Assembly (NCBI GenBank): GCA_051294905.1
Contig: CM119372.1
Span: 12,216,001-12,280,000 of the forward strand
From: Botryllus schlosseri
Lineage: Eukaryota
DNA length: 64,000 bases
Direction: 5' to 3'
The translations under genes were made by a program, and so were the position numbers. The notes under the pieces were generated by a model that worked only from the letters and a program-made list of their open reading frames with translations, made no database searches and was not told the DNA's origin. How positions within the stretch are numbered: the stretch's first letter is position 1; each line of letters starts with the position of its first letter. Below are positions 24,201-47,658 of this stretch, in pieces.

Positions 24201-27200
24201 GATGTCATATTTTGTGATACGATGGTTGATATACGATGTTCTTTCCAATTCTCTACTAGTTGCTGACGATTACCCCTGACGGTTGTCTGCCGAAAATATT
24301 CGGGTTCATTTAAATATGAATATACTATTCCATTGTATATTGAAGTTCTGTACCTCCAAGAAGCTCTTCTAATTGTAGTATAAACAGAAATTCTTAAGCT
24401 GGTTGTCTACCCACTTGACTTCATTCTCGTTTCAAGCACTTTGTGAAACCGAAACGGTTTTTGAATCCGCCAAAATCCACACAAAAAGTCCGTCATGTAG
24501 CCTACTTATCCGTGGCATTTAAAGTTGAATGGTTTTTCAGTGGTAACATGTCCCGCCATCGAAACTCCAGACGACATGGACATGACGTGCACCAACGCCT
24601 ACTACTACTCGTCGGTATGCCATTTCACGTGCAACGACGGGCTGCACATGATCGGCCCTTCAGAGGTGTATTGCGGTGACCCGGACAGAACCGGCCAAGG
24701 AAAGTGGACCACAAAGCTACCGACCTGTACTCAAAGTGAGATTGTTGTTACAAATATCATAGTCAGTAATGAAGTACTATAAGTACTCAAGTACTTTTAC
24801 CTCTACTGGAGTAGCAATGCTGACTCCTTTGACGACCTCTGGTCTCGGCGAGGTGTTTCAGCCGCTGAAATATTTCCAGCCTTGATATGCTTACCCGAAT
24901 ACACGGCACCGGAATTCGGAAAGTCAACCTGCACCGATGCAAATAAGGCAGGGTCGCAGTGTACTTTCCGATGTGATCAAGGCTACAAATTGGTCGGCAG
25001 CGGTGATATCTTGTGTCAGGACGCGGACAGGGCCGGGCAGGTTACCTGGAGTGACCCCCCTCCGGTATGTGAAGGTTGGTAGAAACGATTTGTTGAAAGG
25101 TAACTTTGTTCTCAAGTGTACTGTATCTACGGTTCAGATTGCCCCGGTGGGTATTGTGCAAAGGATATTATTGTGCTGTTGGATGGCTCTGGCAGTGTCA
25201 CCATTGATGACCTGAAGCATGTGAGAAAATCCATTGCTGATATCCTGGAAGGTGTGCAAGGGGAGATTGATTCTGGATCGACACGAGTAAGGTTTTGATT
25301 TACAAGGCTATATCTGCACCTTCCATGTCCATTGGCATATGTATATCATGAGTCGGTGCTGCATAAACATCAAGGACAAAATATACAACGTCCTATTCCT
25401 ACTTGAAGTTCAAGCCATTAGCAAAACAATCATCATTTTATTAGCATCTTCAATGATTCTAGGTAACACGAGAATTCTCTACATTCCAGAGATAGGAGGA
25501 TTCAATACGAATTGGATTTAATTATAATGACAGAGCTTGCAACTGCGAGCCATGCACAGTGAAAAAAAGTAGCAGAAGATAACATAGATGGGATGTTGGA
25601 CATGGACAAGCGGTGAAAATGAAGTTTTAGGTGTTGGTGGACTATCAATATGTCAGAGCGTGGGCTGGTAATCTCAAGTGCAGACTAGTATATGGAAAGT
25701 TCTTCATTTCATTATATCCATCTACAACACATGCAGTCACATCAATACCCGATTACTCTTTTAGTATCAAGTTGTATTACTGTTGTATCAAATTACTAGT
25801 ATCTTTTAGTATCTTGATGTGACAGTACGAATCTTTCTTTGAATCATGTGTTTCAGGTGGGTCTTATTCAGTATGGTGGCACATCTACTTTCATATGCTC
25901 GTCCGATGCCGTCTCCCTTGAGTATGAGGTATAGTACTGCATTTTCATTGTGACATTGTATCGGTTTCCAGAATGAATGTAAGAGAGGAATTGCAGTTGT
26001 GGTAATCTACCATGATCTGGGGTCGAGTCAATGTGATTCAAATGCAGCTGGTCTAGGATCACTCAATCTATATTAGAGAGCTTATTTATTTCGTCTAAAT
26101 AGAAGACAATGTTCATAATCATGCAAGTCATGAAATCACATCATGTTTGAATCGCCAAGCTGACATTAGCTATTACTGTCATGGAGAACCGATATGACTA
26201 AAGTCTTCAAGGGCGTAGTCACCCATACATATTTCGATGAATTAATCTATCTTCTTCCCTGAATTAAGTAGGAAGATATAACGAGGAAAGAAACGAACAC
26301 AAAAATGAGGAAATATTAGAGAGTAACAGAAAAATGATGGATGTAGTTTCTGTTTTTGCCAATGTGAGCTTGTAATATCAATAAGATAATTGAGAATTTT
26401 ACAATCACCTCTACTTGCCTTAAATAGTTTAATACTAGTCGACTCAATTTTAATTATTTTGAATTTTTAGGTGCAATTAGAACTTGGCTACTATCCTTTT
26501 CGTGAAGTGAAGGATGCGATATCAGAGTTACCGAGATTCGGTCATTGCACCGCCACCGGTCAAGCGATTTCGGTGGTGGCGAAACATTTTCAAACCTTGG
26601 GTAGAGACAACGCGCATTGGGTCTTGGTACTCCTAACCGATGGGCGGTCGAATGACGATGTCGCCGGACCCGCCCAGAAAGCTAAAGATTCGGGTGTGTT
26701 AAAGTAGAATGCACGTGTGCTTTCGTTTTTCAAGATTCCTTAGGTTATTTTCTATGAATTTCGGACTCAATATGGAGAATAATACTAGGAATACCAGGTA
26801 GATTTTAGATCGATCAACCTTACTTGGTCGTTTCGACATTCTCTGTTCATTACATCGCACTGAGTCGTCTCTATCACAATCAAAACAATAGCAGTGGTCA
26901 GTCGCAAGTATGTTCTACTTTTACGAAGTCATCAGGTAGGTTTTGCTTGAAACTGAATCACGCTACCTCCAGTGGTAATGATTTTAGTCTACTTCTACTT
27001 ACCGTTTTCAGTTTTTTAGGCAAAGCTCGGCCTAGAATACTTATTTTCTTTACTTAATTGTAAATCGCTACCTTTACTTCAATAGAAATTTACGAATCTA
27101 CGGTGGTACTAACAATGCTTACTTTTACAACCTCTGTGTATCGAAAATCGACTAAAACATCAAACATGTTTGCAAGCATTTAATCAATTTTAGGAATCAA

Positions 27201-30649: not shown

Positions 30650-33600
30650 ATGTCAATAAATGCCAGCAGTGGGAGTAGATCGTCGCTGGTGCATTCTGGT
30701 GACAGTGAGCCTCAGCCCAAGAAAATTCGCCTTGGAACTGATAAAAGTGAACGACAAAACAAATCCCCATTATTCAGCCTTGTAAAATGGAGAAAGAATC
30801 GCAAAGTGGGAAATGAAACCGACACTGCCGTTGATTATTCGAAAAAGACTCAACGTAATGGAACATTTATGCGCCCGACAAGCGATAGATCATTGCACAA
30901 CAACAATCACGAAAGACACGAAGCCTCTCCGACAATGGACAGAAAGCAACCGCAGCCTGCTTCGAAAAAGTATTGGTTTTCGAAAACAGAGACCAAACTC
31001 AATGTGAATCGATCGGAATCAACAAAACTGTTATATTTTGGATTTTTATTACCTGCTTTGGCACTTCATCCAAAGTCATTAGAAGAGGCGAGTATTTGAA
31101 TTTTTGTATTTTTCTCATGAATACCAGTGCATTTCTGTGTGGTTAAACATATTTCCACCTACTGATTTGTCCATCGCAATGCTAACTATGGCTGCTTACA
31201 GACTAGTTGTTTATATCCTTCATCCACTTTTGATAACCAATGTGGTGTTGTCAGTATTATTATTCTGTTCTAATCGATTGCTTGTAGGGCTATATTCAGT
31301 TTTACGACATGTGGCTTAATTGTTGGCATTCCCACCTCAAAAATAGGGTCCGTTCATTCACTATTATGAAATTAAGATAAGATTTTGTGATGAAAATCCG
31401 AACATCTTTTTTAAAATTCGTCGCATCTATTGTTTTCAATCATTGCCTGGTCCGTCTGCAATCATTGTGAAAACAGGCAATCGATATTTTCCTTTTTAAA
31501 AAGTGCGACACACCAAAATATGACGAAGATTTCAAGCTCCGCCTTGCCGCTGCTCACATCAACGACGCCATCAACAGCCGTGGCAAATTCGGCCGGGCCA
31601 GGTCACTCATGAAATCAGACTATGTACAAAGGTAACCGTCGTGATTGCTGATTTTTGGCATTATTCATATCGTTGTTACGGGGATATCAAAATTGAACAC
31701 CACTTTTCTTCAGGTGTTATAAAATCATTTCGAGTCCGTATTGGGAGTATCTTATTTATTTGTTTATCGCGCTGCACTGCTTCATGGCTTTTTGGGAGCA
31801 GTCTCCCACTCCAACACCTATCAGACAACAATGGTAAGTCTTTGATGGAATTCGAGTGTGTCGTAACTACCTGCAGTGATTCATATTGTTTAGGCTTGGC
31901 GATTGGGTCATGAATGCATCTGTTCTGGTTATCGATGCCTTGTGCACAATGATTTATATCATCGACATTATTCTGTGGATCGGGTTTTTGTCATGGTCGC
32001 ATTTTTGGTCTGCGAAAGAAAACTTTTGGATTCGGTAAGATTTGTGGAATTTTTTAGCAGTGTGCTTCTTGGCTTTGAGCTAGTTTTTTACTATCTTTCT
32101 CCTTTCAGGTTTAGACTTATCTTGCTTCCCAGTTTAGCCGAGTTGCGTAGCCAATCGTTGAATTTATTCTTTGAGAATGCTTTGGTGTTTGCTTGAATAG
32201 CGTGCACTAACATAGTTCAATTCTTGCTCTGTGTAGGGTGGAGTTCGTGTTTACTGCAATGTTCATTGTAGACTATGTGATCCTGGTGCTGCAGAGGGCA
32301 TTGGGAGAGGTAAGTGATGCATGCAGTTTTTAGCGGTGATGTTGGTTGACCAGTTTTTGTAGCCATGATGTATCTCCGGTTCCGGCTAAGCCGTGAAGCG
32401 ACAGCTCAAAGTCTGGTCAGCACCTTTGTGCTCTGTATATAGGCTCTGTAAATGTATAAAATATATTCTGCTGTTAACATTCATGATGAAGCTTTTCTAA
32501 TTGTCAATTTTGGGTGAAATGTCACTTCGACTAGTATAGTTGTTCATGCTTCTCAGTATGAAATCGAACAGTTTGTCTTTACGTGAGATGAGCGAAATTC
32601 TCTTAATACACTTGCTGTCGAGTCTTGTGTTATAGGCAGGCATTACCAATTGTTCCCACCAGCAAAAATATTAATTTTATTACTAAACTGAATAATAATA
32701 TCTTTTAGACAAAATAATTCAATTAAAACCAGTTTGGCTAAAATTTGAAGCTATTTTCGGAAGAGATCGTTTCCCTAACTCTAACACTTTTTTATTAGCG
32801 TTTAATCGCACCATTTCGATGTTTACGTGCCGCGATGCTACTCTGCAAATCAAAGAATGTTTCTCATATCTTCAAAGTATTACTCAGCATTATGTCCAGA
32901 CTGGGCAAGGTTTGGTAAATTTACATTGTGCCGCTAGAACACTCATCTCACTGCAACAAATCAACAGGTGTTCGCTATAATCTTAATATTTATCTTCACA
33001 TTTGCATCCATTGGATTACACCTTTACATGTTGGACTATCATGAAGTTAGCCAGGATTGTCCCGATCCTAATCAAACGTGAGTAAATTTGATTGGATTGA
33101 TATCATGTATTGGTTTCAAATATTGATTGTAGGGTTCAAGTGTTTAATTTTTCAAATTCATTGATATGTTAAACTAGCAATTCAAGCACACTCAAGATAA
33201 GTAAGGAAGGCATGCACCTGTTTTTTCAGGCCACCTGATCATATAAAAGTAGGACGTTACTCATTGATAGTTCTAATTTATCAAAATACTTCAACTTACA
33301 TTCTCTTGAAGACAAGGTAATTCTAGTGGCTAGACCTACTTCTCCGTTACATTATTGTCATTGTATATGTTTAAAATTCCACGGCAATTTGCTGCCTATT
33401 AATGTTTAGGCCATTACATATACTACCCTATAGAAGGAATCTAGGAAAGAATAAGGAGATTCAGATTCCTTTGCCTTGGTCCAATATCTCTTTTGTGGAA
33501 TCTGACCTTATAAATCATTATCCTGATTTATTGTATGCTTTGAGGTGGTAGCTATACACTAAGCAAGGCCGTCGGTAAACTGACCATTGAAATCTCACAG

Positions 33601-36600
33601 CAGGGTCCTTCTATTGACATTTCGATGCTTACACAGTGGTATTGATTAGTAATTCACTCTGAGACAGATACGGTACCACAAATATTTACTTATTAAAAAT
33701 TTCTTTATCTTTTATGTTTTCTCAGAAACTGTACCAGCGTCTACTCTGGGTAAGAATTCTATTTGGATTGAAAATTGTGTTTCAATCTAGCTGGAATTTT
33801 TTGAGTCAAAGCTTTCCAAATGATTAATGATATCAGTTCATCTTTGATTGCAAAATAAAGTTGTTATTGCATTGTTGCTAGTAACCCCTGAATGTTTGTT
33901 TTTAAACAGCGCTTTCGACAATATTGCGATTGCCAGTGTTCACATGTTCGTATTGATGTCGACTGAAAATTACCCGGTAAGTATATACTAATATCTTGTA
34001 GCCACCCATGGAGGGAGATATTTCGGAAATTGTCATAGTGGCATAAAAAACTATTTTGGCATAGTGAAACGTTTGTTTGTTTCCAGAATCGTTGCAATAT
34101 TGCTTGTGCAATGCTATCCACACGTTTAATTGGTTTTCGCCGTTTGCAAGTAAAATTTATATGCTCAATATCATAAGCCAGTTATGCAAAATGAAATCTA
34201 CAGTACAGAACTGCCGGAAATATGAATGGTCAGTAAGTCCGGAGGTTACCACATATACCAATGTTTAAATCTGCTCAGAATAAAAAATGTTCAGGTCAAC
34301 ATGACCCTTATATATTGTTCTGGTGAGAGTTTCCATGTGTTAAACCTCAACGTTATGGACTTTACGACAAGTATTTGAACATTTCCAAATATTGACATTT
34401 CATGCTCGAGGCATATTAAATACACGCACTAACAATCTTAGCAGAGTTGAACATTTTTTCACGGAGTTGATGTCCCCAAAATATTCTTGAGTAATACTAT
34501 CTTTGTTGTCTTAATTGAACCAGGACTGGAAAGTGGAACAAATTTTAAGCAGCTCCCGTCCATTTATCATAAACTAGAAATTAATTTCAACTAACCAAGT
34601 TCAAATTTTGACTCCAAGGCTACTATGTGGGGACTCTGACTCTAACTAACAACTCGCACTGTTTCATATTGGTAATTCAGGCCCACACTTCCCAAATCAA
34701 ACTTCCACCCAAACTAGCCATTGTAAAGTGAGTAAAAACCTATCGATTCTCATACGAATTAGTAGTTCTGGTCTGAAGACCAAAACCCAAATGGATAGAC
34801 TATTAACATGCCGGTACAAGGTATTACAATATTCGAAATATGAATGAATTCCATTACAGTGAACGATAGCATGTCGATGTTTATCTTTATCAAAAATTAC
34901 TCCAACTTTTGCTGCATTTTGCAGGACATCATCATCCCGGCCTTTTTCAAGAGCACTGCGAATTTCTTTTACTTTATGTTTTATCTGTATGCCGGCGTAT
35001 TTTTTCTGACCGCTATTCTCCTGGCTATTATAGTCGAAAGCTATTGGGAGTACAGCAAGAAGCATGTCAAAATGGAAAGGCTGTAAGTAGGACATTGGCC
35101 GTCTATTCCGCTAAAACGTTTTAGTGTTGTTGATTTAATATAGATTGGACTCTTGTTGATTTAGGATTTTATGATCCTTCCAGAATGTTGTTGTCACAAA
35201 ATTTCTTGATCTGGCAGACTTATATACTGGATCAACATCTGCAGTTAGCCATACCTTTGTAACACCGAATTCATCATTCGCCTCTTGTGTTCACAGGAGG
35301 CAGAGAGAAGAATTAATAAGAGCTTGGAATCTTCTAGACTTGAATGGCACGGGTTATCTTAGCGTGTATGATCCCAAACTTTTAAAACTATTTGCACTGC
35401 TTAAGCCCAAGGTAAGTTATCTTATAGTATTCGTCTCCACAATGGAGTCACGGCCATTTGGAACAAAAATGATGAACATCTGTATTCTCTTTTGAGGATC
35501 AAAGTCTTTCCTTTAAATTTGTCACTTCACGAAAGATGTCGTGAGCTTGACGTCAAATTCTTGACAAATGGTTCAAGAGAAATTGAATATATAAGGACAT
35601 GACATTCCAGCAGAATGGAGAAAATATGTGAAAATTCTCACGCCCTTTTAATAATACTCCTATTGTGATATGTATAAGACAAATTCCTGCTAGAGAATTG
35701 AAATTGACACCAAACAACTGAATGCACGTCTTTGTGTGCTAAATGTATGACAAGATAAACTTGTAATATTATGGACGAAGTCAAAAGTTTTCTAATTTGA
35801 TTTGAAACTTCGCTTCAGGCATTACATAACGTTGATAATAAAACATGAAGTGTCAGCCATGTTGTTTGTCCTCGTATTTGAAGTTTACCATGTCAGCATA
35901 GCGCTCAAGAGACGGGAATGATAATATTTGTGTCTTTCAATATTACGATCTTGTTTTGACAAAACTTTGCGGATGAGTCACGAATCACTGTGTCGTCACA
36001 TTATCAACTCAATATTTACAGTTCTTCTGTCAATTCAGAACACGGAAGATCAAATCACTCAATTGATTGAGTATATGGGCGAAGGCAATGAGGACATTGA
36101 CACGTACGATTGGACGACCAGACTCGTTCAAACTCTAAGCATCGAGTTTGAAAACGAGACCAACGATGATATATCGTCCAACGGTTCCGTCGGTTACTCC
36201 AGACTTAGGTCATGCTGCAGTAGAATTATTCATGTAAGTAAATTTACAAGTAATCACCCTGTATTGGCAATCCCGTTATGAGGTATATCTTACTAAATTT
36301 CGAAACATTAAATTCCATGAAAACACAAATTTTTCAGGCCAATGGAATCGGGATGGCCATTCTCGTACTTATTCTTCTTCACAGGTATGTGTGGTGATGC
36401 AATAACTTTTGCGAGACTATGCAATATGATTAACTAGTCATCTAAGATTTGTTTCTACATCTACATACATTACTTCAGTTGCTTTGTGTCAATCCTAGTT
36501 CAACTTCATACGTTACGCTCAAATTTTTAAAGCTATATCGCTACGCATTTGAATTATTTTATACTCTGATACAGTATCATACCCTTCCCCAAAACAAAAA

Positions 36601-39600
36601 GTATGCGGATAGTGCTTTTTTGTGGCACTAATATTCATCTTGGATTTGATTTGAAAGCGCAATCAGATAGTTTTTATGAGTGTTGAAAAAGCCTCAAAGT
36701 CTGTCGAAACATTTTACTTGTGCATCATCAATCATCTATTTTTGCATGAGTACACAAGGTACAAAGTACAAGGTACAAGGTACAAGTACAAAGCTATCAC
36801 TGAAGGTACGCATCGACCAGTATTACTTTAGGCAACTGAAAAGTAATGAACATTAAAAGAAAGAAATGACTTTGCAACAGTGTGTCTGGTGCATCTCATC
36901 GCGCATTGCCTGTTTTGAATGGATGGAATTTCTGGTAAAAGCTCGTTTATGGTTTACGACATTCGTATCTGATCCGTTCAAACACATAACACCCGTAAAT
37001 CTACTAAGCTATGAATACTACATTAGGAAGGAGATGAGATTCTAAACATGTCTCTTACATGTGTTTTTGTTTTCAGTATATTCTTCTGCTTAATGTGGAG
37101 CGGCATAAACAATAACACCCAACTTGCTTTCCAAGCTACGCGGACAGCGATAGTATTTGTGTTTGTAGTGGAACTGGTATTGAGAATTTCTGCGGACGGT
37201 GCAAAGTTATTGAATATTCTCGATATACTCGACATCTCCATGATTGTGATTGCTGTCGTGGGCAACTTTACGTGGTGAGCTTAAATTTTATTTTATCAGT
37301 CCTCTAATCTGATTAAGGTTCCGTGACTGATATATAACAATTATTCTAAGAAATTTCAATCTTTCATGGATATATTTGGTGGAAGTCATCATAAAATGCG
37401 ACACAATTATCTGATTCGCAGGTGTTGAAATGGGTCGAGATCTCATTTATTCTCAATTTATTATTATTATATCTGGCCTAAGATTTTCAAGGACATCATA
37501 CATTAAACTTGAGAACCCATCACTATTCACGACTCATATACTTTGCTCCTCGATATATCTTCTGTTACTTTTCTGTTACTTTTCCGTTACTTCCGGTGTG
37601 TATGACTCTCATTTACATATTCTAGGCCAGTGCTGGTGCTTGATTGAAAGAATACTACAAGCCGTTATCATACACTTCTAGTCAAGTAACAGGTCTTAAT
37701 AATGATTTCAGATGTCAAACAATCATTTTCACAAATATGTATTCCTGAGTGTAGCTCATGAATTGTTGTGATATGTTTTCTCGCAAATTTGCATATTTCT
37801 AGGTACATTTTGTGGTTCGGTACTACGATTCAAAATTTGCAATTGTATCTCGGAGCATGTGTGGTGACTTCCTCTCTTGCGGTCATCGCCAGACTACTGT
37901 TCAATTCCGAACAAGCTCGGTCCGCGGTTCATATCTTACGCAACATATATCCCGTCATGTTCGATCTCATCCTGCTGGTCGTAATAATCATATACTTCTA
38001 CGCCATTCTCGGATTGGAAATATTTCAAGATAAGTATGTGGCGCACAGTCGTCGATTGGAACATTTAATTTTAAACACACATTCTATCGCGCAGCACACT
38101 GGAAAAAAGCAATGCTACGGGCTTCGAGGGAAGTTATGTGCAATATGGCTGCGGCGTCGGGTTTCAAACATTTGGATGCGCTCTCATGATTGTATTTCAA
38201 ATCGTGACTACTAACGATTGGCACCAAATCATGCTAGGCGCAATGATAGACGCCGGTGAGGTTGAAGAAAATATGTCACTCGAGTTGACAATGTCTAACA
38301 GGCATTCTGTGTTTGTCTGACAGGCTGGGCCTCTGCGTTTTACTTCATATCGTGCTTTCTGATCATTGATATGATTGTGATGAACCTGTTTGTTGCGATA
38401 TCAATTGAAGCGTATAAAAAGTTGGCGAGGGACGACAAGGCCATTACTACAAAATCGGAGACTGCGCCTGATTTCGAAAGCATGGACGAGAATCTTCCTG
38501 ACGGAGAGTCAGTCGCCAGTAATAATATGGCGGCCGGCAGTCGAATGAGTAAGGAGAAATCGGTAAGTATCTTTTTGCTGTGTGCGGACTAGTTTTAAAC
38601 AATAAAATGTAAGTGGTAGCGACCGCTATGTTACGTTATTTTTGTGTGACACTTCTGCATATGTCTCCGTGTGTTATCATCCAGCTGACATGCTTACATG
38701 ATTGAATTTCAACAATTTAATGCTTCTGTAGACCAACTTATGTGATTTTATCAATATTTTCGAGTCGAGGACCTTCTCCTAATTTTCATTGCTGTAATGT
38801 CACACGTTGCCTTGAATTATTGAAATTTAACTACAAGTGTATCAATGATTTTCATTGTTATATATACATTATCATCAAACATTGCAAAATTCTCGATGGC
38901 CCCCAGTTTGCGAATGCGAGCGTCTCGAAAAATGAACAATGAGTGAGAAAACCACTCACTCTTTCAATATCCCCAGGAACGTTCGCTGGGCGAGGCCGCC
39001 AAAGACGCTTTCACCGGAATCTTTGCTAGCACCCGAGCCAGGAAATTCTCCAATCCTCCGACGGTTCCGAATACCGTCGGCATGCAGTTCGGCAGGACCG
39101 GACCGAGAGGCTCTATCGCGATCACGAGCGTGCATACTGACACAAGCGATGACAATGACTCTGTCGATGATACGATACTCAGCCTTGGGAGACTGTCCGG
39201 TATGTGTCGAATGGAATTTATCCGACTACACAGCTTTTGGTTATGCATTATCTGTCGTGTTTAGGCTCGCAGAGATCGAGGAATCGCAATTTCCGGGTTT
39301 CGTCTGATTCATCGTCTTCTAGGAAGAGGGGAAGCCTACCGGATGGGGCATGGCCATCCCAACCCAGGTAATTTCAGCGCCTGTACTCGCTTGCTATTTC
39401 CCGAGGGAAGAAATGGTGGTGGCGGTCCTAACTAGTATCTATACATATTCCGCTATGTTATTTATTTTTATTTTTTAATCTGGAATAAAAAGTGTCTAAA
39501 ATATTAGTGTGTCTGTTAGGGTTTGGACCTCAAGAAATCCCCAACCCGGAATTCCTGGGTTTTAAACAGTTTTTCTGATCCTGATCCTGGAATTGATTCT

Positions 39601-42600
39601 AATAAAATCCATGGATTGCTAGAGTTCATTTACAAACGCTGATGTAGCGCCATAGTACTTTTTTTGTGAAATTGACAAGTAATATAATATATAAATGTAA
39701 TTTCGGTTGCGCGCATATATTCCTACTTTGCTAAGTCACATCGTCACTTCCAGTCAAATCTTATGTTTGACGAATCAATAAATGTCTCTCTGTCTGAAAT
39801 AAAAATGTGTATCTAGCTCGGGGGTTCTCAAAGAGTGGGCCACAAGAGCATTTGAGGTGGGCCACAGAGCTATTTGAAAAATTTTAGAAATAATCTAAGT
39901 TTAGTAATATTTGTTGTGTTATTAACTAAAAAATAAATTCATATTAGTTGATTATACGTTGGCTACTTTAAGCTTTTTATCCGACTCCGATGAGACGCAG
40001 TGGTAGGTATGGAGTCCACATCTCAAGTCGAAAATGGGAGGCAGAAACAGCGGCTTTTTCCACTGGCTATAACTACCTATGGCTAACAGCAACTAAAATA
40101 ATTTCGCGTATACAATACCTGGAAGGTAATGCTGAAGTAACCAATTATTCCGGCAGGGTCATAATGTCGTATGCAGTTGAATGAGGTGTATACGTGCAAT
40201 AAACTCGGAATGAAGTGTGATTGATTTACTGTACTTCGGCAAGTCGTATTATTGTAAGTTAAAAATGGCCACAACTGCAAATTATTAGCAACTTCTGGTG
40301 GAGGTATACTGCACCACCGCAACGAATAGTAATGAATTGAGGATTCAGCGGAGCGCATTAATATTTGGAGTTTGTTTAAATTGCATGCCTGGAAATCAAT
40401 GTACATAATGGAAGAGTCACGTGGATTGATAGTATCACTGGATTGAATATACCGACATCGCAACTTCAGTTGGTTCAGTACGTGACATAAAATGTACATT
40501 GTACAGCATGATTATACTATTCCTCTCAATAGTGGAACTAAAATCCCCATTACACAGTGTATGCGGGAATCCGATCATTGTGTTTCGCGAAGCGAATGGA
40601 GCAGCGGACGATCATAAAATACTCAGAAGTTTTAGCAGAGCCGTAACTGCCGCACCCACACCCTCAATCGGGGGAGCTAGAAGGGGCCCAAGATTATTTC
40701 GTTGGTCGTTTGTTGAAGATATTCATTCAACTTGAAAATTTTCGTCCCGACATGTTCATATTTTAATTTCATTAGTCAATAAGGAGAAAAATGCGCATAT
40801 TTTAGAGAAATAGGCATATCGCATCACGCATTGAACAGGATTATGACTTTCAGATTAGAGGTGGGCCACAGCACATTTTCAAACCGGAAAATGGGCCACG
40901 GCGAAGAAAGGGCTGAGAACCCCTGATCTAGCTGAATAGAATTATTATCCATTGTCCGGGTCAGGATTTTGTATTGAAATCAGTCCGGAATGTGACAGTC
41001 TGTATTTTATTAATTATAATATATTTTGAATATTGACGATGGTCAGTGGTCATCGTTGATTTGCAGCCGGCCCAAAACAGTTCCTATCCGTTTTACCGAA
41101 TGTGTAAATTACTAAACTTTCATAAACAAATGGTCCTGCTGAGACGAGTCCCCTTCGCTTTTATACAGCTCTGAACAGACGGTACCCAGAGCGGGACTGG
41201 GGATGGATAGGAGAGAAAAATTCAAAGCAAGAAGCGAACGCCTAAAGAGAGAGAGAAAAGAGAAACAAAGGAAGCAGCAAGCCGAAGAAGAAGCGACAAG
41301 CACAAACACCTTGAACGTTCCGTCTCCGAAACTGAGCATATCCGGTAACAGAATAGGATTGATATTTCAGATTGTGTCTGTTTGTTTGATCGCGCATTAA
41401 TTGCGCTCAATCCATCACGAAAGTGTGCTATAAAGATCTTAATGTAGATAATCCTCACAATTGACTTTGAAACAGTTTTATCTGGTACGGTTGTCTCTAT
41501 TATCAACTAAAACAGCTAGTATTTGTATAATATTTGTATATATCTATTTGTATATATGACAGCGTCGAAAAGACAAGAGTCACCACAAAATATCACTGTC
41601 ACTCACACCGTACTTGATGAAATATGGAAGACAATTTTAGTTTGTAACTTAATTCAAACTCTCCCAGAGCCTGGTGTAGATCCGAACAGGGGCAAGTGAA
41701 TTGAAGGAGCATTATTATTCTCACTCAATAATATTACCACTCTACTTGATGACTAGCTCTATGATGAATCTACTCAACTGAGGTAAATAAAGTCATTTCA
41801 GTTCAGTTAAGTTTAATATTAGTTTCATCATTTCAAGACACCGCAAGATTGCGATAAAATGAAAAGATAGGAAGGAGTTAAAACAACTTGCCGTAGTCTC
41901 TCGATCAAACAGCCACGTTTGCCTAGAGTCCTAGAACATGTAAATAAGAGGCATGAACTAAATTAATATCAACCGAAGATAACATAAAAAGGTAGACCAA
42001 TGGAAATGACGTGGAACATATCGGATACTGCTAATTATTTGCCTTCATATCACAAGATACGAATTGGACTGGGATTTTTGGCATTATTTCATCACAGAAT
42101 GGCAAGCGAATCCGTGTTGCAATGCACTTTACCATACTTTTCTCATCTCAGATGTTGTAAAATTGAAACGTGTGGTGAAAATCCTGAAACCCTACGACGC
42201 CAAAACGTCGGCAGAAATGAACGTGAAGGAAGGTCAAACGTTTTACGTCTCGGAAACTATGGGGGACATGTATCACGGGCCCAACGGATGGTTTCCGAAA
42301 AAAGTGGCACTCGACGTCGGCATGCAAGCGTCGGACGACCCATTTACAGAAGATATGAATGCTCCCGTTAAGAAAAAGAAATCCGTCAAATTTGTCAACT
42401 TCCAGGTAGAATCAGTACTGAAGTGCTTTTGAATAGTGGGTTGATATGCGTTGGTTTTCAAGGTCGAAAACGAAGTACTTCCGAAAGATCCGGGCACTCC
42501 TCCGATGGGTAGAGCGTCGCCATTAACGGGTATGTACGAATAGGTTCAGATATATGTATGAAGTTTTTCAATTTTCATACCAACCACCAACACGCTCTCA

Positions 42601-45600
42601 GGTTCGCAATTGCCGCATCGGCCGTCTGTAGGGAAGATGAGAATGAGGAAAGACGGCAACACTTGGAGAAGGGACATTCACGGCGAAATGACCGTGATGA
42701 ATAAGCAAGAGGTCATAAACTCTTTACTAGATCATGTTTATTAGCTTTTACTTTGCATACAATTCCGCCAACCGCTTTATGCATTTGTCTGTGGAAACGC
42801 TGCGTTGCTGAGACCACACAATGTGATAACAGATGTCTTACGCAGACGTGGTAAAAGTATTCAGAGTTGCTGCTCATTGCTCAAGTAGAAATAACCCTGT
42901 AAATTTCTACTCAATTTTTGATATATTGAGCAATATCTAAGATATGTCAAAACTACTTCAATTGGAAGGAGAAAATGAAAGATTTGAAAAGCAGCCTGAT
43001 AAGTAGCTTTGAAGTGTAGGTTTGATTTTGGATTCGCATACTTTTAGCAGTTGATCAGAGGTGACTAAATTCCAAATTACAATATGTATCTTCGCGACTC
43101 GTGTAAAATCTTCCATAATATATTAAGTTACTATGATACAGGGACTACTTCATATACAAAAGACACGCAAACTTATCTCAAAATCATTTCCTACTTTTTA
43201 AAATCCAAATTGTAAAAACTAAGTAGTTTTCCGTGGATGCTGTTCCAGTAGAATTGGTAGTAGTGTATAAACATAATCACTCGAGTCTTTGGATTTCACA
43301 ATTTTGGTTCCAATAAGTTATAGCTGACATGAATGGCTTCGAGAAAGTGAATGTTAGGTAGGCTTACCATACGTCCTCCTTTAACAGGATTTGTCCTCCT
43401 TTGTGAGGAAATTGAAAATTTTCACTGAGAGCGCCCAAATGTTCTCCTTTTCTGCAATTCGCCCGCCTTTACAGCTAGTGCTAGACCAGTGGTTCTTAAC
43501 CTTGCCCCCAGCGCCCCCCAGGGGGCGCTGGCGATGTTGAAGGGGGGCGGAAACGCTCAGGGGGCGATATGGGGGGCGCTGGGCTCAGGGGGGCGGTATG
43601 GGGGGCGCTGGAGAAAAATGGCTTCGCAGTAGATGATGTGGTGATAGGACATATCCTAAATGAGTATTCAGAGCAAATTCACACCGAAAACTTCGTTACA
43701 TATAGCCTTCAAAATACATATAGGTTTAATTGTCCATGGGCGCCTAAATGACTGACAGAGAATGTTCCTGTCTTGGCAATCTGAACCCCAGAAGACGAAT
43801 TCCATCTGGCAGGGAAAAATTATATGTCAGTGAAGAAATACCAATCTGAAATGGTGTGCGTCTTTTAGTTTAGTACGATTGGGCGACAGGGATATTCCTG
43901 TTGGGCGATATCCCCGTTGAGCGATTCTATATTTTTTGATATTGCAGACAGGGGGTCACGAAATAACATCATGCAACGAGGTCATACCAACGGGTTCACC
44001 CGCCCGAATATGTTTAATTATTGGTAACGGGCCCTACAGTTTCCAAGAAACCTCACAATGTTCGCTTTAAGTTTTGATGAGTCTGCGCACACTCAACAAC
44101 TCACTGCGCTGACCCTTGAACAACAGTGCGTAACGACTAAAAAAAGGTAATAACTCCGGATTTGTTGTGCGCAACGTAGATTTTCTGTGCGCAGAGACCG
44201 TGTCAGCACTGCGCACGTGCGCAGCTTAGAGGGACCATTGCACCTAACTCAGCTCTACCGGTAAATAAATGTGTTTACGTGAGCAGAGAGAGGATAAAAA
44301 TTGATCTCAATTTACATGCAATTCCCGATGATATTGACCAATTCAATCATTAATTAGTGAAATTTTTCGCACTTCGCGCGACTAGGCGAGAATAGCTCCC
44401 TCAGTAAATGGACACCCAATGTAGATACCTAATAGGCTATCAGCGGACAGCCTAATGGAGGTCTGGGAGCGAAGTCCCCCGGAAGTTTGGTTTATCACCC
44501 GATGGGGGCCCAGGACCAACGTTTTATGTTTGGGGAGGGGGGCTGACGAAGTGCTGTTACGGCCCTGGTAACGAATAATTGTACCTGCGGGAACGCCCGA
44601 ATATGTTTAATTATTAATTACGTGCAACTTATTTTCCTATACAACAGCTCACTCAGTGTTACTGGTAAATCTGATTACGTGGGCTGAGAGGATAAAAAGT
44701 TTATAGCGACTTATAAATGTAATTACCATGCATTATGGAAAATATGCAATTACCATGCATTATAGCAAATTTTGGTACCTAGGGCGACCAGGCCACACAA
44801 ACTTTGCTGACCACCAAAATCACGATATGGGGTTCGTGGGGGCGAAGCCCTCAAAAGTTCGGTTTATCACGCTATGGGTGCGCAAGGCAATCGTTTTTAG
44901 GGGGGTTGACGAAGTGCTGTTACGGCCCTCCCTCTTACTCATTGTCTTTATTACATTCCTTACAATATGAAGTTGAGGGGGGCGCTGGAGCACAATAATT
45001 TTTGAAAGGGGGCGCTGGACGAAAAAAGGTTAAGAACCACTGTGCTAGACTAATGGATAGGGTGGACTGAAAATCGGCATAAATGAGGCGAAATAGGTAA
45101 TGCGGACGTTCGAGCGAGTCATTCGGGAGTCGAATCATAGTGATGACTTTTTTTTTAGTCAACACAAGATTTCCAGTGAATATTTCAAAATCAGCTGTTT
45201 TCGTTTTCCTAAAACTATCTATGAAAATGTCCTCCTTAACGGATCCCCATATATGGTGACCCTTATGTTTACAAAGTACAGAGGTGGTCAGTAGCTTTTC
45301 GAAGGACTTCAAGTAGATTTTACCTAGTCACACTACTTTCTCAGTTGGATATTATTTTAGACTAATTCTACTTTTTCGTGACAGTTTTCAGTTTTTTAGG
45401 CAAAACCAAGCCTTAAATACTTACTTTTTTTCTTACTTGCATATTTCTACTTCTACTTGAGTACCGATGGTTACGACTTTCGCTAACTCTGTCAAAGATC
45501 CATGCCTTGGTTTTAATCCATGTTATTCCAATCTAAATCACCCTGAAAACCATTTCAGGCACAAGAGCTTGCCAAGCGATTACGAGGAGGGAAGATGAAC

Positions 45601-47658
45601 TATGAACGCCACCAGTCTAGGCTTAACCTCATGAAGTCCAATGTCAGCCGACTGAGTCTTCTAAACACCAGAAGGTAAGCCCACCCTCGTTGTCTTGTGT
45701 ATTTATAGTTGTTGATCTTTTCATTCTCGGTACGCTTATGTTGATGCTATCTTTACTATCTCCTGTTTGATCTGTCAATATTTCTATTCCACCACCAGAC
45801 AGCATTTGCAAATTATCTTTTTATACCTTTGACACAATCAATCTGTTTCCAGGTCAAACGATGAAATCTCACAGCAAATAATCGAGGAGAGGGAAGAGGA
45901 ATCTACGCCTCCATTGCCAATTTTGAAAGTGTCGGAGGCACAATCATCATCGGAACCGAGCGTAGCAAGCAATGATGATACAGACGCAAGTACTCAAAGT
46001 CAGTGTTTTTATGCTATTCAGTCGGAGGAAATCAATGTGTAATCTCGGATAATATTTCTTCAATACAATATTGGTACGTAGAGCAGACATGAATCACTTC
46101 ACACAAGTAGAAAATTGGTGCTTTGGAACATGCATACTGCTCATATCAGGGGCGGGCAACATACGGCCCACGGGGTTCTGAGCAGCCCGAAGAGAGTTTC
46201 TACACTGAAAGCGAATTATAATCTGAAAGTATTGACAAATTTTATGCGTCTCAATCCAAGTTTGCCAACCGGATAAACTACTTGTTCTGTTCGGGTCTAC
46301 ATACATTTGTGAGCAAACATTTTCGACCATGAATAATAAACAAGACAAGGCTGCGTTCCAATATAACGTGCAGTCTTTACTAAGGGTTTCTACATCCGAC
46401 ATGCAGCCACAGTTCAACGAACTTGTTGACAACTTTCATCGACCACAAATGTCTGATTGACTTCAACAGCTATTGAAGTACATTTGGTTAATAAATTCAC
46501 TCAATACTGTTTTTGGTCTATATCCTTTAAACTTAAAGTTTACATTGAATACGTTTTATTCCTTGCATAGGTGTATAAATACGCAATTAATGTATCGATT
46601 CTGTAATCCGGCCCGCCGAGCACTTCAGGTTCCCATATCAGGCCCGCCGACCGGAGAAGTTGCCCGCCCCTGGCTTAAATGAATAGGTTTAGGTTTGGAA
46701 CAACTTCTGGAAATTATGAAACACAATGTCTGGAAATTATGAAACACTATTTCATGACTAATTTGAGATGCCTGACGATATGAAAAAGCTATACGATTCT
46801 CCAAGTTATTTTCCATCGCTGTGGCGTTATATATATATATTTTTCATCGCAGTATATCCGTGACTTCAATGCTGAAAATCAGTGTTCTGTTCACAAATAT
46901 AGGTTTGAGCTGTGTCCAGGGATTATACTAGTTTGATGCATGATACATCACAAAACTATCAATATCTGTCTATAAATTACTTAACATGTGATAATATTAA
47001 CTAAGGAAAGCTAGGTCAGGTGGGTGTCTGATTTCGAAGACTGCTCCGAGTCGTTTCGACACCTTCCTATGTTTCATTGTATCGCAGTCTTGTGGTGTAT
47101 TAAAATGATGAAATTGTTAGCAATAAATTGAATTGAGTTGAGCATATCTCTCGTTTTGCAGCTACTTAGGAATTGGTGCGATTCTTTTTTATTTTACCGA
47201 CACAAATCTTCAGATAACGACACTTTGACCGTTCCCAAATCGTCGGGAAGGAATAAAGCCAAGCCAAAAGGCAACGGCGAAATCCCTAGCTGGTTGAAAA
47301 ATTTCGTGGCGAGCAACGGAGTAGAAGTGCAGGACGACTTGAAATTCGACGAAAGCAAACTGAAATCTCCTGCCGCCTCCGACGACGATGAGTATGCAGC
47401 CATATCTTTAAAAAATTTGATCACCAAATCGGAGTTTCCGTGTATCTTCACAGGTATAACGAAATACTGGACTGTTCGAAAAATCCTGGTACTTCCTCAC
47501 CTATGGAGATTTCACCAGTTCAAGATGATCCTGCAAATGATCAAGATAATGATTCGGGAACTGCATCTAATGGCTTAAAGCGTAACACTTCGGTGGATAG
47601 AATGTCCGTCCATGATATTGATGAAGATAATGTCAATTCTCTTAACTCAGTGACCTGA
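30650..47658 (+). CDS. Divergent two-pore channel (TPC)-like cation channel, 2x6TM with EF-hand linker and C-terminal SH3-like domain, ~1358 aa
   Basis: 27 exons with consistent phases, total 4077 nt ending in TGA: 30650-31003, 31477-31631, 31714-31833, 31894-32034, 32237-32309, 32799-32909, 32968-33077, 33726-33749, 33910-33976, 34925-35082, 35297-35411, 36039-36233, 36338-36384, 37077-37274, 37803-38033, 38095-38255, 38324-38562, 38977-39199, 39265-39367, 41169-41344, 42152-42405, 42463-42529, 42602-42711, 45559-45674, 45853-45998, 47214-47391, 47454-47658. TPC hallmarks: pre-S1 LAAAHINDAINSR, S4-I RLIAPFRCLRAAMLL, pore-I FDNIAIASVHMFVLMSTENYPDIIIPAF, pore-II FQIVTTNDWHQIM, S6-II IVMNLFVAISIEAY. 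The start ATG and first donor are the least certain parts. Confidence 0.88.
36750..36793. repeat. Short GTACAA(G) tandem repeat
   Basis: gtacacaaggtacaaagtacaaggtacaaggtacaagtacaaag. Confidence 0.8.
39819..40925. mobile_element. Non-autonomous hAT-type element (1107 bp)
   Basis: CGGGGGTTCTCA..TGAGAACCCCTG; perfect TSD ATCTAGCT; subterminal GTGGGCCAC repeats. Confidence 0.88.
41815..42030 (-). mobile_element. L2/CR1-like LINE 3' fragment
   Basis: TTTCATCATTTCAAGACACCGCAAGATTGCGATAAAATGAAAAGATAGGAAGG matches the same family. Confidence 0.65.
43359..45264. mobile_element. TAGGGTTACCA-family element interrupted by a younger hAT insertion
   Basis: TAGGCTTACCATACGTCCTCC..ATATGGTGACCCT; GTCCTC subterminal repeats as in 53051-53390; TSD eroded. 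Confidence 0.6.
43487..45042. mobile_element. Non-autonomous hAT (Charlie/Buster-like) element with nested fragments
   Basis: CAGTGGTTCTTAACCTT..AAGGTTAAGAACCACTG; perfect TSD TGCTAGAC; GGGGGCG subterminal repeats. Confidence 0.92.
46147..46672 (+). mobile_element. hAT deletion derivative retaining transposase C-terminus
   Basis: TIRs CAGGGGCGGGCAAC / GTTGCCCGCCCCTG, TSD 6/8; the + frame from ~46287 reads LFGSTYICEQTFSTMNNK..LRVSTSDMQPQFNELV (hAT dimerisation-type motif). Confidence 0.85.
47010..47135 (+). mobile_element. L2/CR1-like LINE 3' end fragment
   Basis: GGTGGGTGTCTGAT..GTCGTTTCGACACCTTCCTAT..CATTGTATCGCAGTCTTGTGGTG..AATAAA. Confidence 0.7.

Follow-up and report, generated by a model that had tools for sequence, protein, structure and literature searches.

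The 64,000-nucleotide (nt) stretch of the Botryllus schlosseri genome analyzed here, hereafter the window (C2:12216001-12280000 of the 495.5-Mb assembly), is animal DNA with a G+C content of ~40%, in which pieces of a two-repeat channel occur in stop-to-stop frames of the + strand between 30.6 and 47.7 kb. These belong to a single multi-exon gene (30650-47658, +) of 27 exons, with a coding sequence of 4128 nt for a protein of 1375 amino acids (aa), an ATG at 30650 and a stop codon at 47656-47658. We consider it likely that this gene is the tunicate representative of an as yet unnamed channel family, spread across animals and characterized by two six-transmembrane (6TM) repeats, which belongs to the voltage-gated cation-channel superfamily, is sister to two-repeat channels of choanoflagellates, probably constitutes the animal branch of the TPC-related (TPCR) channels, and is distinct from the animal two-pore channels (TPCs) TPC1-3. 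An earlier note on this DNA had described a complete, frame-consistent gene of 27 exons in the same interval, with two 6TM repeats and an SH3-bearing tail in one protein; the analysis bears this out, with 1375 aa in place of its ~1358 and ~570 aa after the last transmembrane helix (IIS6) in place of a tail of ~500.

The exon-bearing frame 37762-38211, which served as the starting query, retrieved the predicted full-length proteins of Styela clava (P0001, 1425 aa; 71% identity on the exon) and Ciona intestinalis (P0002, 1336 aa; Ion_trans and SH3_2 domains), along with a JGI fragment. Both proteins give collinear tblastn matches to the window from 30893 to 47422, the tail included. Splice sites were picked by maximal similarity to P0001 under GT/GC-AG and frame constraints. 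GT-AG borders are found in 25 of the 26 introns. The sole exception is the first intron, whose donor at 31087 is GC, and the model is therefore least secure at its 5' end. A low-depth contig of 249 nt from run X1 (31087-31335) begins exactly at this donor and reads on into the intron, so that the junction of exons 1 and 2 is unconfirmed. Further downstream, exons 22-26 were placed by homology only, and a weak point there is that the donors of exons 24-26 have near-equal alternatives. A 24-nt micro-exon (33726-33749) was needed for the conserved NCT..YSG turret motif of repeat I; it carries the conserved Cys and the N-x-T sequon and is easily missed by automatic annotation. As all 16 matches of P0001 in the assembly (E ≤ 1e-3) fall inside this gene (31504-47422), it is single-copy. 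Pfam models find two tandem Ion_trans repeats in P0001 and P0002 (152 and 150 bits, respectively), with which the window exons are collinear, but the exon pieces of the window themselves stay below the cut-offs for Ion_trans, EF-hand, and SH3 (for Ion_trans, 4 of 124 stop-to-stop pieces of at least 38 aa match, each at 13.8-22.5 bits against a cut-off of 25).

Four sequencing runs were aligned to the window: X1 and X3, which come from different studies, X8, and X16. Record 7 of X3 (2202 nt) consists of 37802-38033, a 160-nt gap, 38323-38561, 38976-39198, a 279-nt gap, and 42151-42403, and record 3 of X1 (1544 nt) has the same last three pieces with the same 279-nt gap; the piece ends fall on AG/GT sites, give or take one base of ambiguity. 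The shorter gap corresponds to exon 16, whose 161 nt differ from it by the 1 nt that the alignment leaves ambiguous, and the longer one to exons 19 and 20 (103+176), which are the sole match to the orthologs among 57 frame-open two-exon solutions. Since the X1 and X3 contigs span both regions and their gaps equal these exons, the channel exons of repeat II are spliced together with the SH3 exon in a single molecule in runs of two studies. Record 6 of X1 and record 11 of X3 start at 47454 and extend beyond 47900, which marks the last exon and the 3' untranslated region. Transcripts thus answer the splicing question raised by the earlier note in part: they join repeat II to the SH3 exon, but at exon 1 the X1 contig reads through the donor. 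Run X8 behaves as DNA, its pieces being collinear with the genome, introns included.

When the core of P0001 served as query, 22 proteins matched at E ≤ 1.1e-125, the next match being Cav1 at 3.6e-11. They come from tunicates, crinoids, a brittle star, sea stars, a hemichordate, an annelid, a nemertean, a brachiopod, cnidarians, and homoscleromorph sponges, and 20 of them have precomputed Pfam matches to SH3, i.e., Ion_trans and SH3 in one protein. Further members were looked up in Branchiostoma (amphioxus), Diadema, Apostichopus, Glandiceps, Tubulanus, Lingula (a second gene), Oscarella pearsei, and Sanderia, and the SH3-tailed family is present in at least nine animal groups. Its database names are all automatic and misleading (e.g., 'P/Q-type calcium channel alpha-1A-like', 'sodium channel type 4/7/11', and 'two pore calcium channel protein 1-like'). 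Vertebrates and ecdysozoans are missing among the named members looked up, no systematic search having been made, and this would fit loss in those groups.

A profile of nine family members, scored against 1.84 billion representatives, matched 16755 proteins at E ≤ 1e-3. The family members take the top ranks and are followed by a second tier (280-440 bits, in one stretch over both repeats) from nine choanoflagellate species, the sponge Sycon, a second gene of Owenia, the haptophyte Prymnesium, and environmental sequences; nine of the ten second-tier proteins looked up first are from choanoflagellates, to which Barroeca was added. Four-domain channels rank below this tier (≤ 266 bits), and no canonical TPC is among the best 150 matches (down to 188.5 bits). 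Against the sequences of the PDB, the same profile scored TPC3 at 149.7, mouse TPC1 at 120, and AtTPC1 at ~120 bits; Cav3 and Cav1 are the best matches there by summed score (~245-250 bits for Cav3, summed over three matched stretches), and AtTPC1, TPC3, and TPC2 give single full-length alignments. With a profile of 29 sequences, 7998 scored candidates yielded nine proteins, none of them a named TPC1-3, the useful match being P0213, a plant-type TPC1-like protein (2.8e-54 to AtTPC1).

The phylogenetic tree (67 rows by 649 columns; IQ-TREE, LG+G4; supports given as UFBoot/SH-aLRT) comprised 19 family members, 10 choanoflagellate and 11 other second-tier proteins, P0213, two canonical TPC fragments of the B. 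schlosseri genome itself, and both halves of 12 four-domain channels. The window protein groups with that of Styela (100/99; 71% identity over 636 core columns), within four tunicates (100/100) and an animal family (100/95) whose internal order is near the species tree. The second Owenia gene joins the family at 94/77, choanoflagellate group A joins these at 95/94, and all 37 family and second-tier rows with a TENYP-type pore form one clade (100/100). Canonical TPCs, with the plant-type P0213 inside, form another (100/94), so placed that the family does not go with plant TPC1, and the halves of the four-domain channels a third (100/100); the window gene itself has two repeats only. Forcing the family together with the three TPC rows costs 99.3 lnL units and is rejected by the approximately unbiased (AU) test (p = 1.6e-11). 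Because the tree is unrooted and all three groups meet at one node, it gives no ranking of pairwise closeness among them, and the suggestion that the family is closer than the canonical TPCs to four-domain channels was dropped. Some animals have a second, more divergent paralog (Owenia P0070, Lingula P0050), and P0071, from the calcareous sponge Sycon, is placed with another subgroup of choanoflagellates. The haptophyte proteins P0075/P0198 of Prymnesium, named 'EF-hand domain-containing protein', lie within the same 100/100 clade, because of which the two-repeat TENYP lineage would either predate Holozoa or have been transferred.

The P0213 query also hit two other loci of the B. schlosseri genome, and tblastn and local profile searches of ~85 kb around them revealed collinear exons of two canonical TPC genes that are separate from the window gene. 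The one on C13 (~5628500-5643100, +) has the filters TTANNPDVM and VVNNW, with one exon matching human TPC2 at 6.4e-15; the one on C11 (~14520700-14526100, -) has TTANSPDVM and VVNQW, with one exon matching zebrafish TPC3 at 4.3e-37. Both have neutral filters and a charged fourth helix in repeat II (IIS4). By these matches the genome holds a TPC2-like and a TPC3-like gene beside the window gene, which settles in the affirmative whether canonical TPCs coexist with it; for a third (TPC1), one exon query gave no match at E ≤ 0.01, which is too little to show absence. The claim that the window gene is not an ortholog of TPC1, TPC2, or TPC3 but a separate lineage is accordingly upheld by the maximum-likelihood tree, the AU test, the profile ranking, these two genes, and the 22 ortholog-level proteins from tunicates to sponges. 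A suspected link to TPC-related proteins of unicellular holozoans proved right in kind, in that the family is sister to choanoflagellate proteins, though the published TPCR accessions lie outside the tree.

Residues of the core were compared across the window protein and its 22 relatives (23 rows), and in a separate alignment with Cav and TPC rows. A pre-S1 helix, LAAAHIxDAxxGRGxxGxAR, is kept throughout the family. IS4 (RLIAPFRCLRAAMLLCKSKN) has three Arg in register with K0/R2/R3 of Cav, and the Y..D motif of IS2 and the Asp of IS3 are kept, as expected of a charge-transfer center. The Glu of filter I (STENYP) falls in the same column as the selectivity Glu of the Cav repeats (T-x-E-x-W); 22 of the 23 family rows have it, with Ser in Lingula P0021, as do most of the choanoflagellate rows displayed, whereas the canonical TPC rows have Ala (the TPC2- and TPC3-like genes of the same genome) or Asn (P0213) at this position. 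Filter II is TTNDW in all four tunicates, its Asp aligning with that of the Cav repeat II GEDW, and mostly T(T/S)(S/N)NW elsewhere (TTAGW in Lingula P0021), with N-D-W recurring in Sycon and one haptophyte relative. Thus, the window filters, S-T-E-N-Y and T-T-N-D-W, depart from the neutral pattern of canonical TPCs (T-A/S-N-N; V/M-N-N), and judging from the alignments, the repeat-I Glu is the only filter acid of the family as a whole, the repeat-II Asp being found in tunicates and a few distant relatives. IIS4 has a single Arg inside the helix, aligned to Cav R3; the corresponding helices of the TPC3-like and TPC2-like genes read R-x-x-R-x-x-K and R-x-x-R. The IS4-S5 linker (CKSKN..HIF) and the end of IS6 are basic.

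Two EF-hand-like loops occupy the linker between the repeats. Loop 1 of the window protein (DLNGTGYLSVYD) is close to canonical. Loop 2 is canonical (D-x-N/D-x-D-G-x-I-D-x-x-E) in echinoderms and cnidarians, has Gln at its last position in sponges, and is degenerate in all four tunicates; at the level of the family, the pair has precomputed EF-hand_7 matches in Lingula P0021 and S. urceolata P0069. The features that the earlier note had singled out in this core, namely acidic filters, an EF-hand, and an uncharged IIS4, hold to differing degrees: both filters of the window are acidic, though only the first is so family-wide; the first EF-hand is near-canonical, but the second is degenerate in the window; and IIS4 is charge-poor, with one Arg, instead of uncharged.

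The modules of the tail are conserved from sponges to chordates and comprise, in order, a motif of the type SAKxFLxxIFxSSR, a Lys/Arg-rich segment, the SH3 domain, (D)WRRxIxGxxTVMNxEE, and TLTVxxP...GE(M/I)PxWxxxF, the post-SH3 motifs being collinear with those of the orthologs up to the stop codon. As a sequence, the SH3 exon falls below the Pfam cut-off (SH3_9, 18.4 bits vs. 30), while its Ciona counterpart lies above it (SH3_2, 26.5 bits; cut-off 21.8). An AlphaFold2 (AF2) model of the exon from a 29-row alignment has pLDDT >90 for residues 6-55, and every PDB match that Foldseek listed for it is to an SH3 domain or a protein containing one (prob 1.00; TMt up to 0.83, root-mean-square deviation 1.2-2 A). 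Exon 21 is thus predicted to adopt the five-stranded SH3 beta-barrel fold. One Trp of the Trp-Trp pair of SH3 domains normally contacts PxxP ligands. At the pair site a Trp is kept in nearly all non-tunicate rows, and in the four tunicates the pair is replaced while the fold would be retained. We also modeled a full-length member from a coral (P0017; 46-row alignment), with pLDDT 75.5, pTM 0.72, and a core >90, in which a helix-loop-helix EF-hand pair at 430-490 (pLDDT ~90) and an SH3 domain at 895-946 are both confidently predicted. Its best Foldseek match is AtTPC1 (E 8e-18, TMt 0.77 over 702 columns), followed by human TPC2 (TMt 0.76-0.77), zebrafish TPC3 (0.76), and mouse TPC1 (0.69), indicating a TPC-type fold for the modeled member. 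The nearest named clusters in the ESM Atlas are plant TPC1 families (0.96); a search of the Atlas with the tail of P0009 gave no usable match.

The family combines features otherwise distributed over several known systems. With animal TPC1/2/3 (6c96, 6nq0/8ouo, 6v1q) it has in common the 2 x 6TM organization, the overall fold (TMt 0.69-0.77), and P(D/E)xxxPA after filter I, but it belongs to another clade, has Glu/Asp in place of Ala/Asn/Asn in the filters, and is down to a single Arg in IIS4; its linker carries an EF-hand pair, and its tail of ~570 aa includes SH3. Canonical TPCs are further characterized by gating through PI(3,5)P2 and/or NAADP and by their endolysosomal location. Plant TPC1 (AtTPC1; 5e1j, 5dqq, 7fhn), the best structural match, likewise has two repeats and an EF-hand pair in the I-II linker; however, it forms part of a separate clade, senses voltage by IIS4, and is without an acidic filter I or an SH3 tail. 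To Cav channels the window protein is linked by the Glu of filter I and the tunicate Asp of filter II, the latter corresponding to the Asp of the (T)GEDW motif, and it differs from them in having two repeats instead of four, Ser/Asn at the Glu position of repeat II, fewer S4 charges, and a separate place in the tree. The diatom TPCL, from what the available passages of PMC11085791 say, is a different divergent two-pore branch with a conserved Asp in its repeat-II selectivity motif; it is described there as free of EF-hands, on the vacuole membrane, and restricted to diatoms, and it lies outside our tree.

A further likeness is to TPCR (Rahman et al., 2014, Sci Signal 7:ra109), known here via the citing papers PMC4278181, PMC12839299, and PMC8490419. 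In the passages available, the 2026 review (PMC12839299) counts three TPC paralogs in animals and an extra protist branch, TPCR, that is 'not found in animals' and has filters closer to Cav, and a commentary (PMC4278181) and a paper on the Toxoplasma TPC (PMC8490419) treat TPCR as a clade of unicellular organisms. As described in these sources, TPCR resembles our family in comprising two-repeat channels outside TPC1-3 with a Cav-reminiscent filter, and the choanoflagellate two-repeat proteins have the TENYP and T(T/S)xNW pore motifs in common with it and are its sisters in the tree. In contrast to the stated absence of TPCR from animals, however, our family is animal-wide with a conserved SH3 tail, with members in tunicates, amphioxus, echinoderms, hemichordates, an annelid, nemerteans, a brachiopod, cnidarians, and sponges. 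Other surveys, as far as their available text goes, put the number of TPCs at three for sea urchin and lophotrochozoans and at 'six homologs' for sponges (2020 review PMC7312350), or used only human and sea-urchin TPCs as queries (Brailoiu et al., 2009; PMC2717647). No description of an SH3-bearing two-pore-type channel was found in titles, abstracts, and passages of the literature surveyed, a coverage that leaves out most subscription papers, and 'TPC4' combined with 'two-pore' gave no literature match. Within this coverage, the family appears to be previously undescribed in animals and, on its sequence features, to fall among two-pore/TPCR-type channels, in keeping with the uncharacterized lineage that the earlier note had suspected.

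By analogy with every solved TPC, two subunits would form a pseudo-tetrameric pore. At the Cav Glu position, its ring would read Glu/Ser/Glu/Ser in most animals and Glu/Asn/Glu/Asn in tunicates, which would have a second ring, Asn/Asp/Asn/Asp, next to it. Because the filter would hold two to four carboxylates, we propose that the pore is cation-conducting and permeable to Ca2+, in contrast to the Asn-lined pores of animal TPCs, which prefer Na+. IIS4, the sensor of TPC1, TPC3, and plant TPC1, is probably inert here with its one Arg, and since this helix is charge-poor, gating by a ligand seems likelier than by voltage. Candidates include cytosolic Ca2+ acting at the linker EF-hand pair, as in plant TPC1, possibly a phosphoinositide or other lipid at the Lys-rich IS4-S5 linker, and voltage through repeat I, while the tail (basic segment, SH3, WRR..TVMN, and TLTVP..PxW) might tether or regulate the channel via protein contacts. 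The protein would then probably be a dimeric, Ca2+-passing cation channel gated by ligand or Ca2+.

Several points weigh against this account and the placement of the family. The raw RNA run X16, sampled at ~6% of the run, gave nearly no exon reads and no junction evidence among 200 placed reads, 190 of which placed only partially, mostly on intronic repeats. The canonical TPC rows of the tree number three, two of them partial exon concatenates and none a TPC1, LG+G4 is the sole model behind it, and the equation of the SH3-tailed clade with the published TPCR clade, although probable from sequence, is made with the published TPCR accessions outside the tree. In the core, acidic and aromatic residues of S2/S3 are retained in both voltage-sensor domains, and voltage gating through repeat I may remain compatible with the three in-register Arg of IS4. 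The EF-hand 2 loop of B. schlosseri lacks the Asp at position 1 and the Gly at position 6, and all EF-hand Pfam matches in the window are below the cut-off (best 16.3 bits vs. 30), because of which Ca2+ sensing may be weak or shifted to EF-hand 1 in this species. Finally, the Trp-Trp pair of the SH3 domain is M-Y, M-M, or M-L in all four tunicates.

Among the alternatives, it is exceedingly improbable that the gene is a TPC1, TPC2, or TPC3 ortholog with a long tail gained in tunicates. The two-repeat architecture, the full-length PDB alignments to AtTPC1, TPC3, and TPC2, the TPCs as best structural matches, and some database names ('two pore calcium channel protein 1-like') would suit this; yet the tail and its SH3 domain are conserved from sponges to chordates, tree and AU test keep the family apart, canonical TPCs are missing from the best 150 profile matches, and the genome has TPC2- and TPC3-like genes of its own with different filters. 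Hardly more probable is a model artifact that fuses a channel gene with a separate neighboring gene for an SH3 protein. An artifact of this kind might be read into the spread of the tail exons over 9 kb with repeat-rich introns, the homology-only placement of exons 22-26, and contigs of X1 (240 nt) and X3 (332 nt) at 45973-46304, which begin within the predicted exon 25 and pass its donors collinearly; these contigs might stem from a retained intron, an alternative 3' end, or a repeat, and X8 depth at this site is above single-copy. Against fusion, the exons for IIS4-IIS6 are connected with that for SH3 in spliced contigs of two studies, Ion_trans and SH3 occur in one protein in 20 of the 22 orthologs of other phyla, and the motifs after SH3 are collinear with these orthologs to the stop codon. 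Very improbable, too, is a decaying or non-conducting relic, as the tunicate EF-hand 2 loop and the SH3 domain without its Trp pair might suggest when set beside other animals: the frame of 1375 codons is intact over 27 exons, the identity to Styela holds over the core, the pore and S6 motifs are conserved, and spliced contigs exist.

The remaining alternatives concern function. A plasma-membrane, voltage-gated Ca2+-entry channel that senses by repeat I, the reverse of TPC1, TPC3, and plant TPC1, is unlikely but would account for the three in-register Arg of IS4 aligned to Cav K0/R2/R3, the charge-transfer residues of IS2/IS3, and the Cav-like Glu of repeat I. TPC structures have, however, shown that canonical TPCs also carry Arg in IS4 and do not use them for voltage sensing. 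Quite unlikely is a TPC2-like behavior, in which the channel would be endolysosomal, phosphoinositide-gated, and voltage-independent, with a tail serving only in trafficking. The charge-poor IIS4 resembles the pattern of voltage-insensitive TPC2, and the basic IS4-S5 linker (CKSKN..HIF) and IS6 end and the TMt of 0.76-0.77 to human TPC2 agree with it, but the filter has Glu (in tunicates also Asp) instead of the Asn of TPC2, the EF-hand pair recalls plant TPC1, and a TPC2-like gene is already present elsewhere in the genome.

The placement that we prefer, an animal-wide two-repeat family sister to choanoflagellate channels, can be joined to the mechanism in a broader and tentative reading, possible if on the whole doubtful, in which an ancient TPCR-like two-repeat lineage, already present in the choanozoan ancestor and with relatives among haptophytes, retained a Cav-type Glu in its pore and survives in animals as this family. 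The family would represent a fourth, non-endolysosomal class of two-pore channels in animals, Ca2+-permeable, gated by cytosolic Ca2+ via its EF-hands and/or by repeat-I voltage, wired by the SH3 tail to cortical or endocytic partners, and kept from sponges to amphioxus and tunicates. If so, it may be, among living channels, the nearest model of the two-domain intermediate that gave rise to the four-domain Ca2+/Na+ channels. To the three animal two-pore genes counted in the available text of reviews, where the TPC-related branch is missing from animals, the window gene adds a further conserved family with a distinctive build: its pore has a Cav-like Glu, its linker EF-hands as in plant TPC1, its second voltage sensor few charges, and its tail an SH3 domain. 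Its occurrence in tractable animals (Ciona, Nematostella, sea stars, amphioxus, and sponges) opens the questions of how a two-repeat channel with a Cav-type filter conducts and is gated, which bears on the origin of the four-domain Ca2+/Na+ channels, and of which Ca2+ signals of marine invertebrate cells depend on a so far unstudied channel.

Table 1. Exons of the two-repeat channel gene in the window, with the protein features that they encode and the evidence for them.
Feature	Position	Strand	Evidence
Whole coding span	30650..47658	+	homology-guided splice model, spliced contigs
Exon 1: start codon and N-terminus of low conservation, with LLYFGFLLPALALHP motif at its end; GC donor; least certain exon	30650..31087	+	
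Exon 2: pre-S1 helix common to the family, LRLAAAHINDAINSRGKFGRAR	31504..31631	+	
Exon 3: IS1	31714..31833	+	
Exon 4: IS2 (Y..D motif) and loop toward IS3	31894..32034	+	
Exon 5: IS3 (VEFVF..FIVD)	32237..32309	+	
Exon 6: IS4 (RLIAPFRCLRAAMLLCKSKN, three in-register Arg) and S4-S5 linker	32799..32909	+	
Exon 7: IS5 and beginning of turret I	32968..33077	+	
Exon 8: 24-nt micro-exon, (T)NCTSVYS(G), turret motif with N-x-T sequon	33726..33749	+	
Exon 9: pore helix I and filter I STENYP	33910..33976	+	
Exon 10: IS6	34925..35082	+	
Exon 11: EF-hand 1, loop DLNGTGYLSVYD	35297..35411	+	EF-hand_7 16.3 bits, cut-off 30
Exon 12: EF-hand 2 (loop degenerate in B. schlosseri) and remaining I-II linker	36039..36233	+	
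Exon 13: start of IIS1	36338..36384	+	
Exon 14: IIS1-IIS3	37077..37274	+	
Exon 15: IIS4 (one Arg in helix) and IIS5	37803..38033	+	transcript
Exon 16: turret II, pore helix II, filter II TTNDW	38095..38255	+	transcript gap
Exon 17: IIS6 and proximal tail	38324..38562	+	transcript
Exon 18: conserved post-S6 motif AAKDAFTGIFASTR	38977..39199	+	transcript
Exon 19: Ser/Arg-rich linker	39265..39367	+	with exon 20 fits 279-nt transcript gap
Exon 20: Lys/Arg-rich segment preceding SH3	41169..41344	+	homology, transcript gap
Exon 21: SH3 domain; Met-Tyr in place of the usual Trp-Trp	42152..42405	+	transcript, AF2, Foldseek
Exon 22: linker	42463..42529	+	
Exon 23: family-wide motif WRRDIHGEMTVMN	42602..42711	+	
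Exon 24: ELAKRLRGG segment; alternative donor 45674	45559..45635	+	
Exon 25: acidic segment; alternative donors 45998, 46004	45853..45989	+	
Exon 26: family-wide motif TLTVP...GEIPSWLKNF	47214..47433	+	
Exon 27: last coding exon	47454..47658	+	X1 record 6 and X3 record 11 start at 47454

Parts of the introns of this gene (39700-41450, 43200-45560, and 46150-47320) are high-copy repeats, with a summed X8 contig depth 10^2 to 10^4 times the single-copy level (~75-90), and many of the joints found are internal to these repeats. Downstream of the gene, a Pfam scan of open reading frames (ORFs) of at least 70 aa between 48 and 64 kb of the window gave zero matches. Upstream of it, the region 3175-27054 (+) contains one or more multi-exon genes rich in Sushi/CCP repeats, in which 12 ORF pieces match PF00084 (E 1e-9 to 7e-4) and two exons (21614-22081 and 26471-26704) have VWA matches; from this domain content, its product could be a complement-control or SVEP-like protein.

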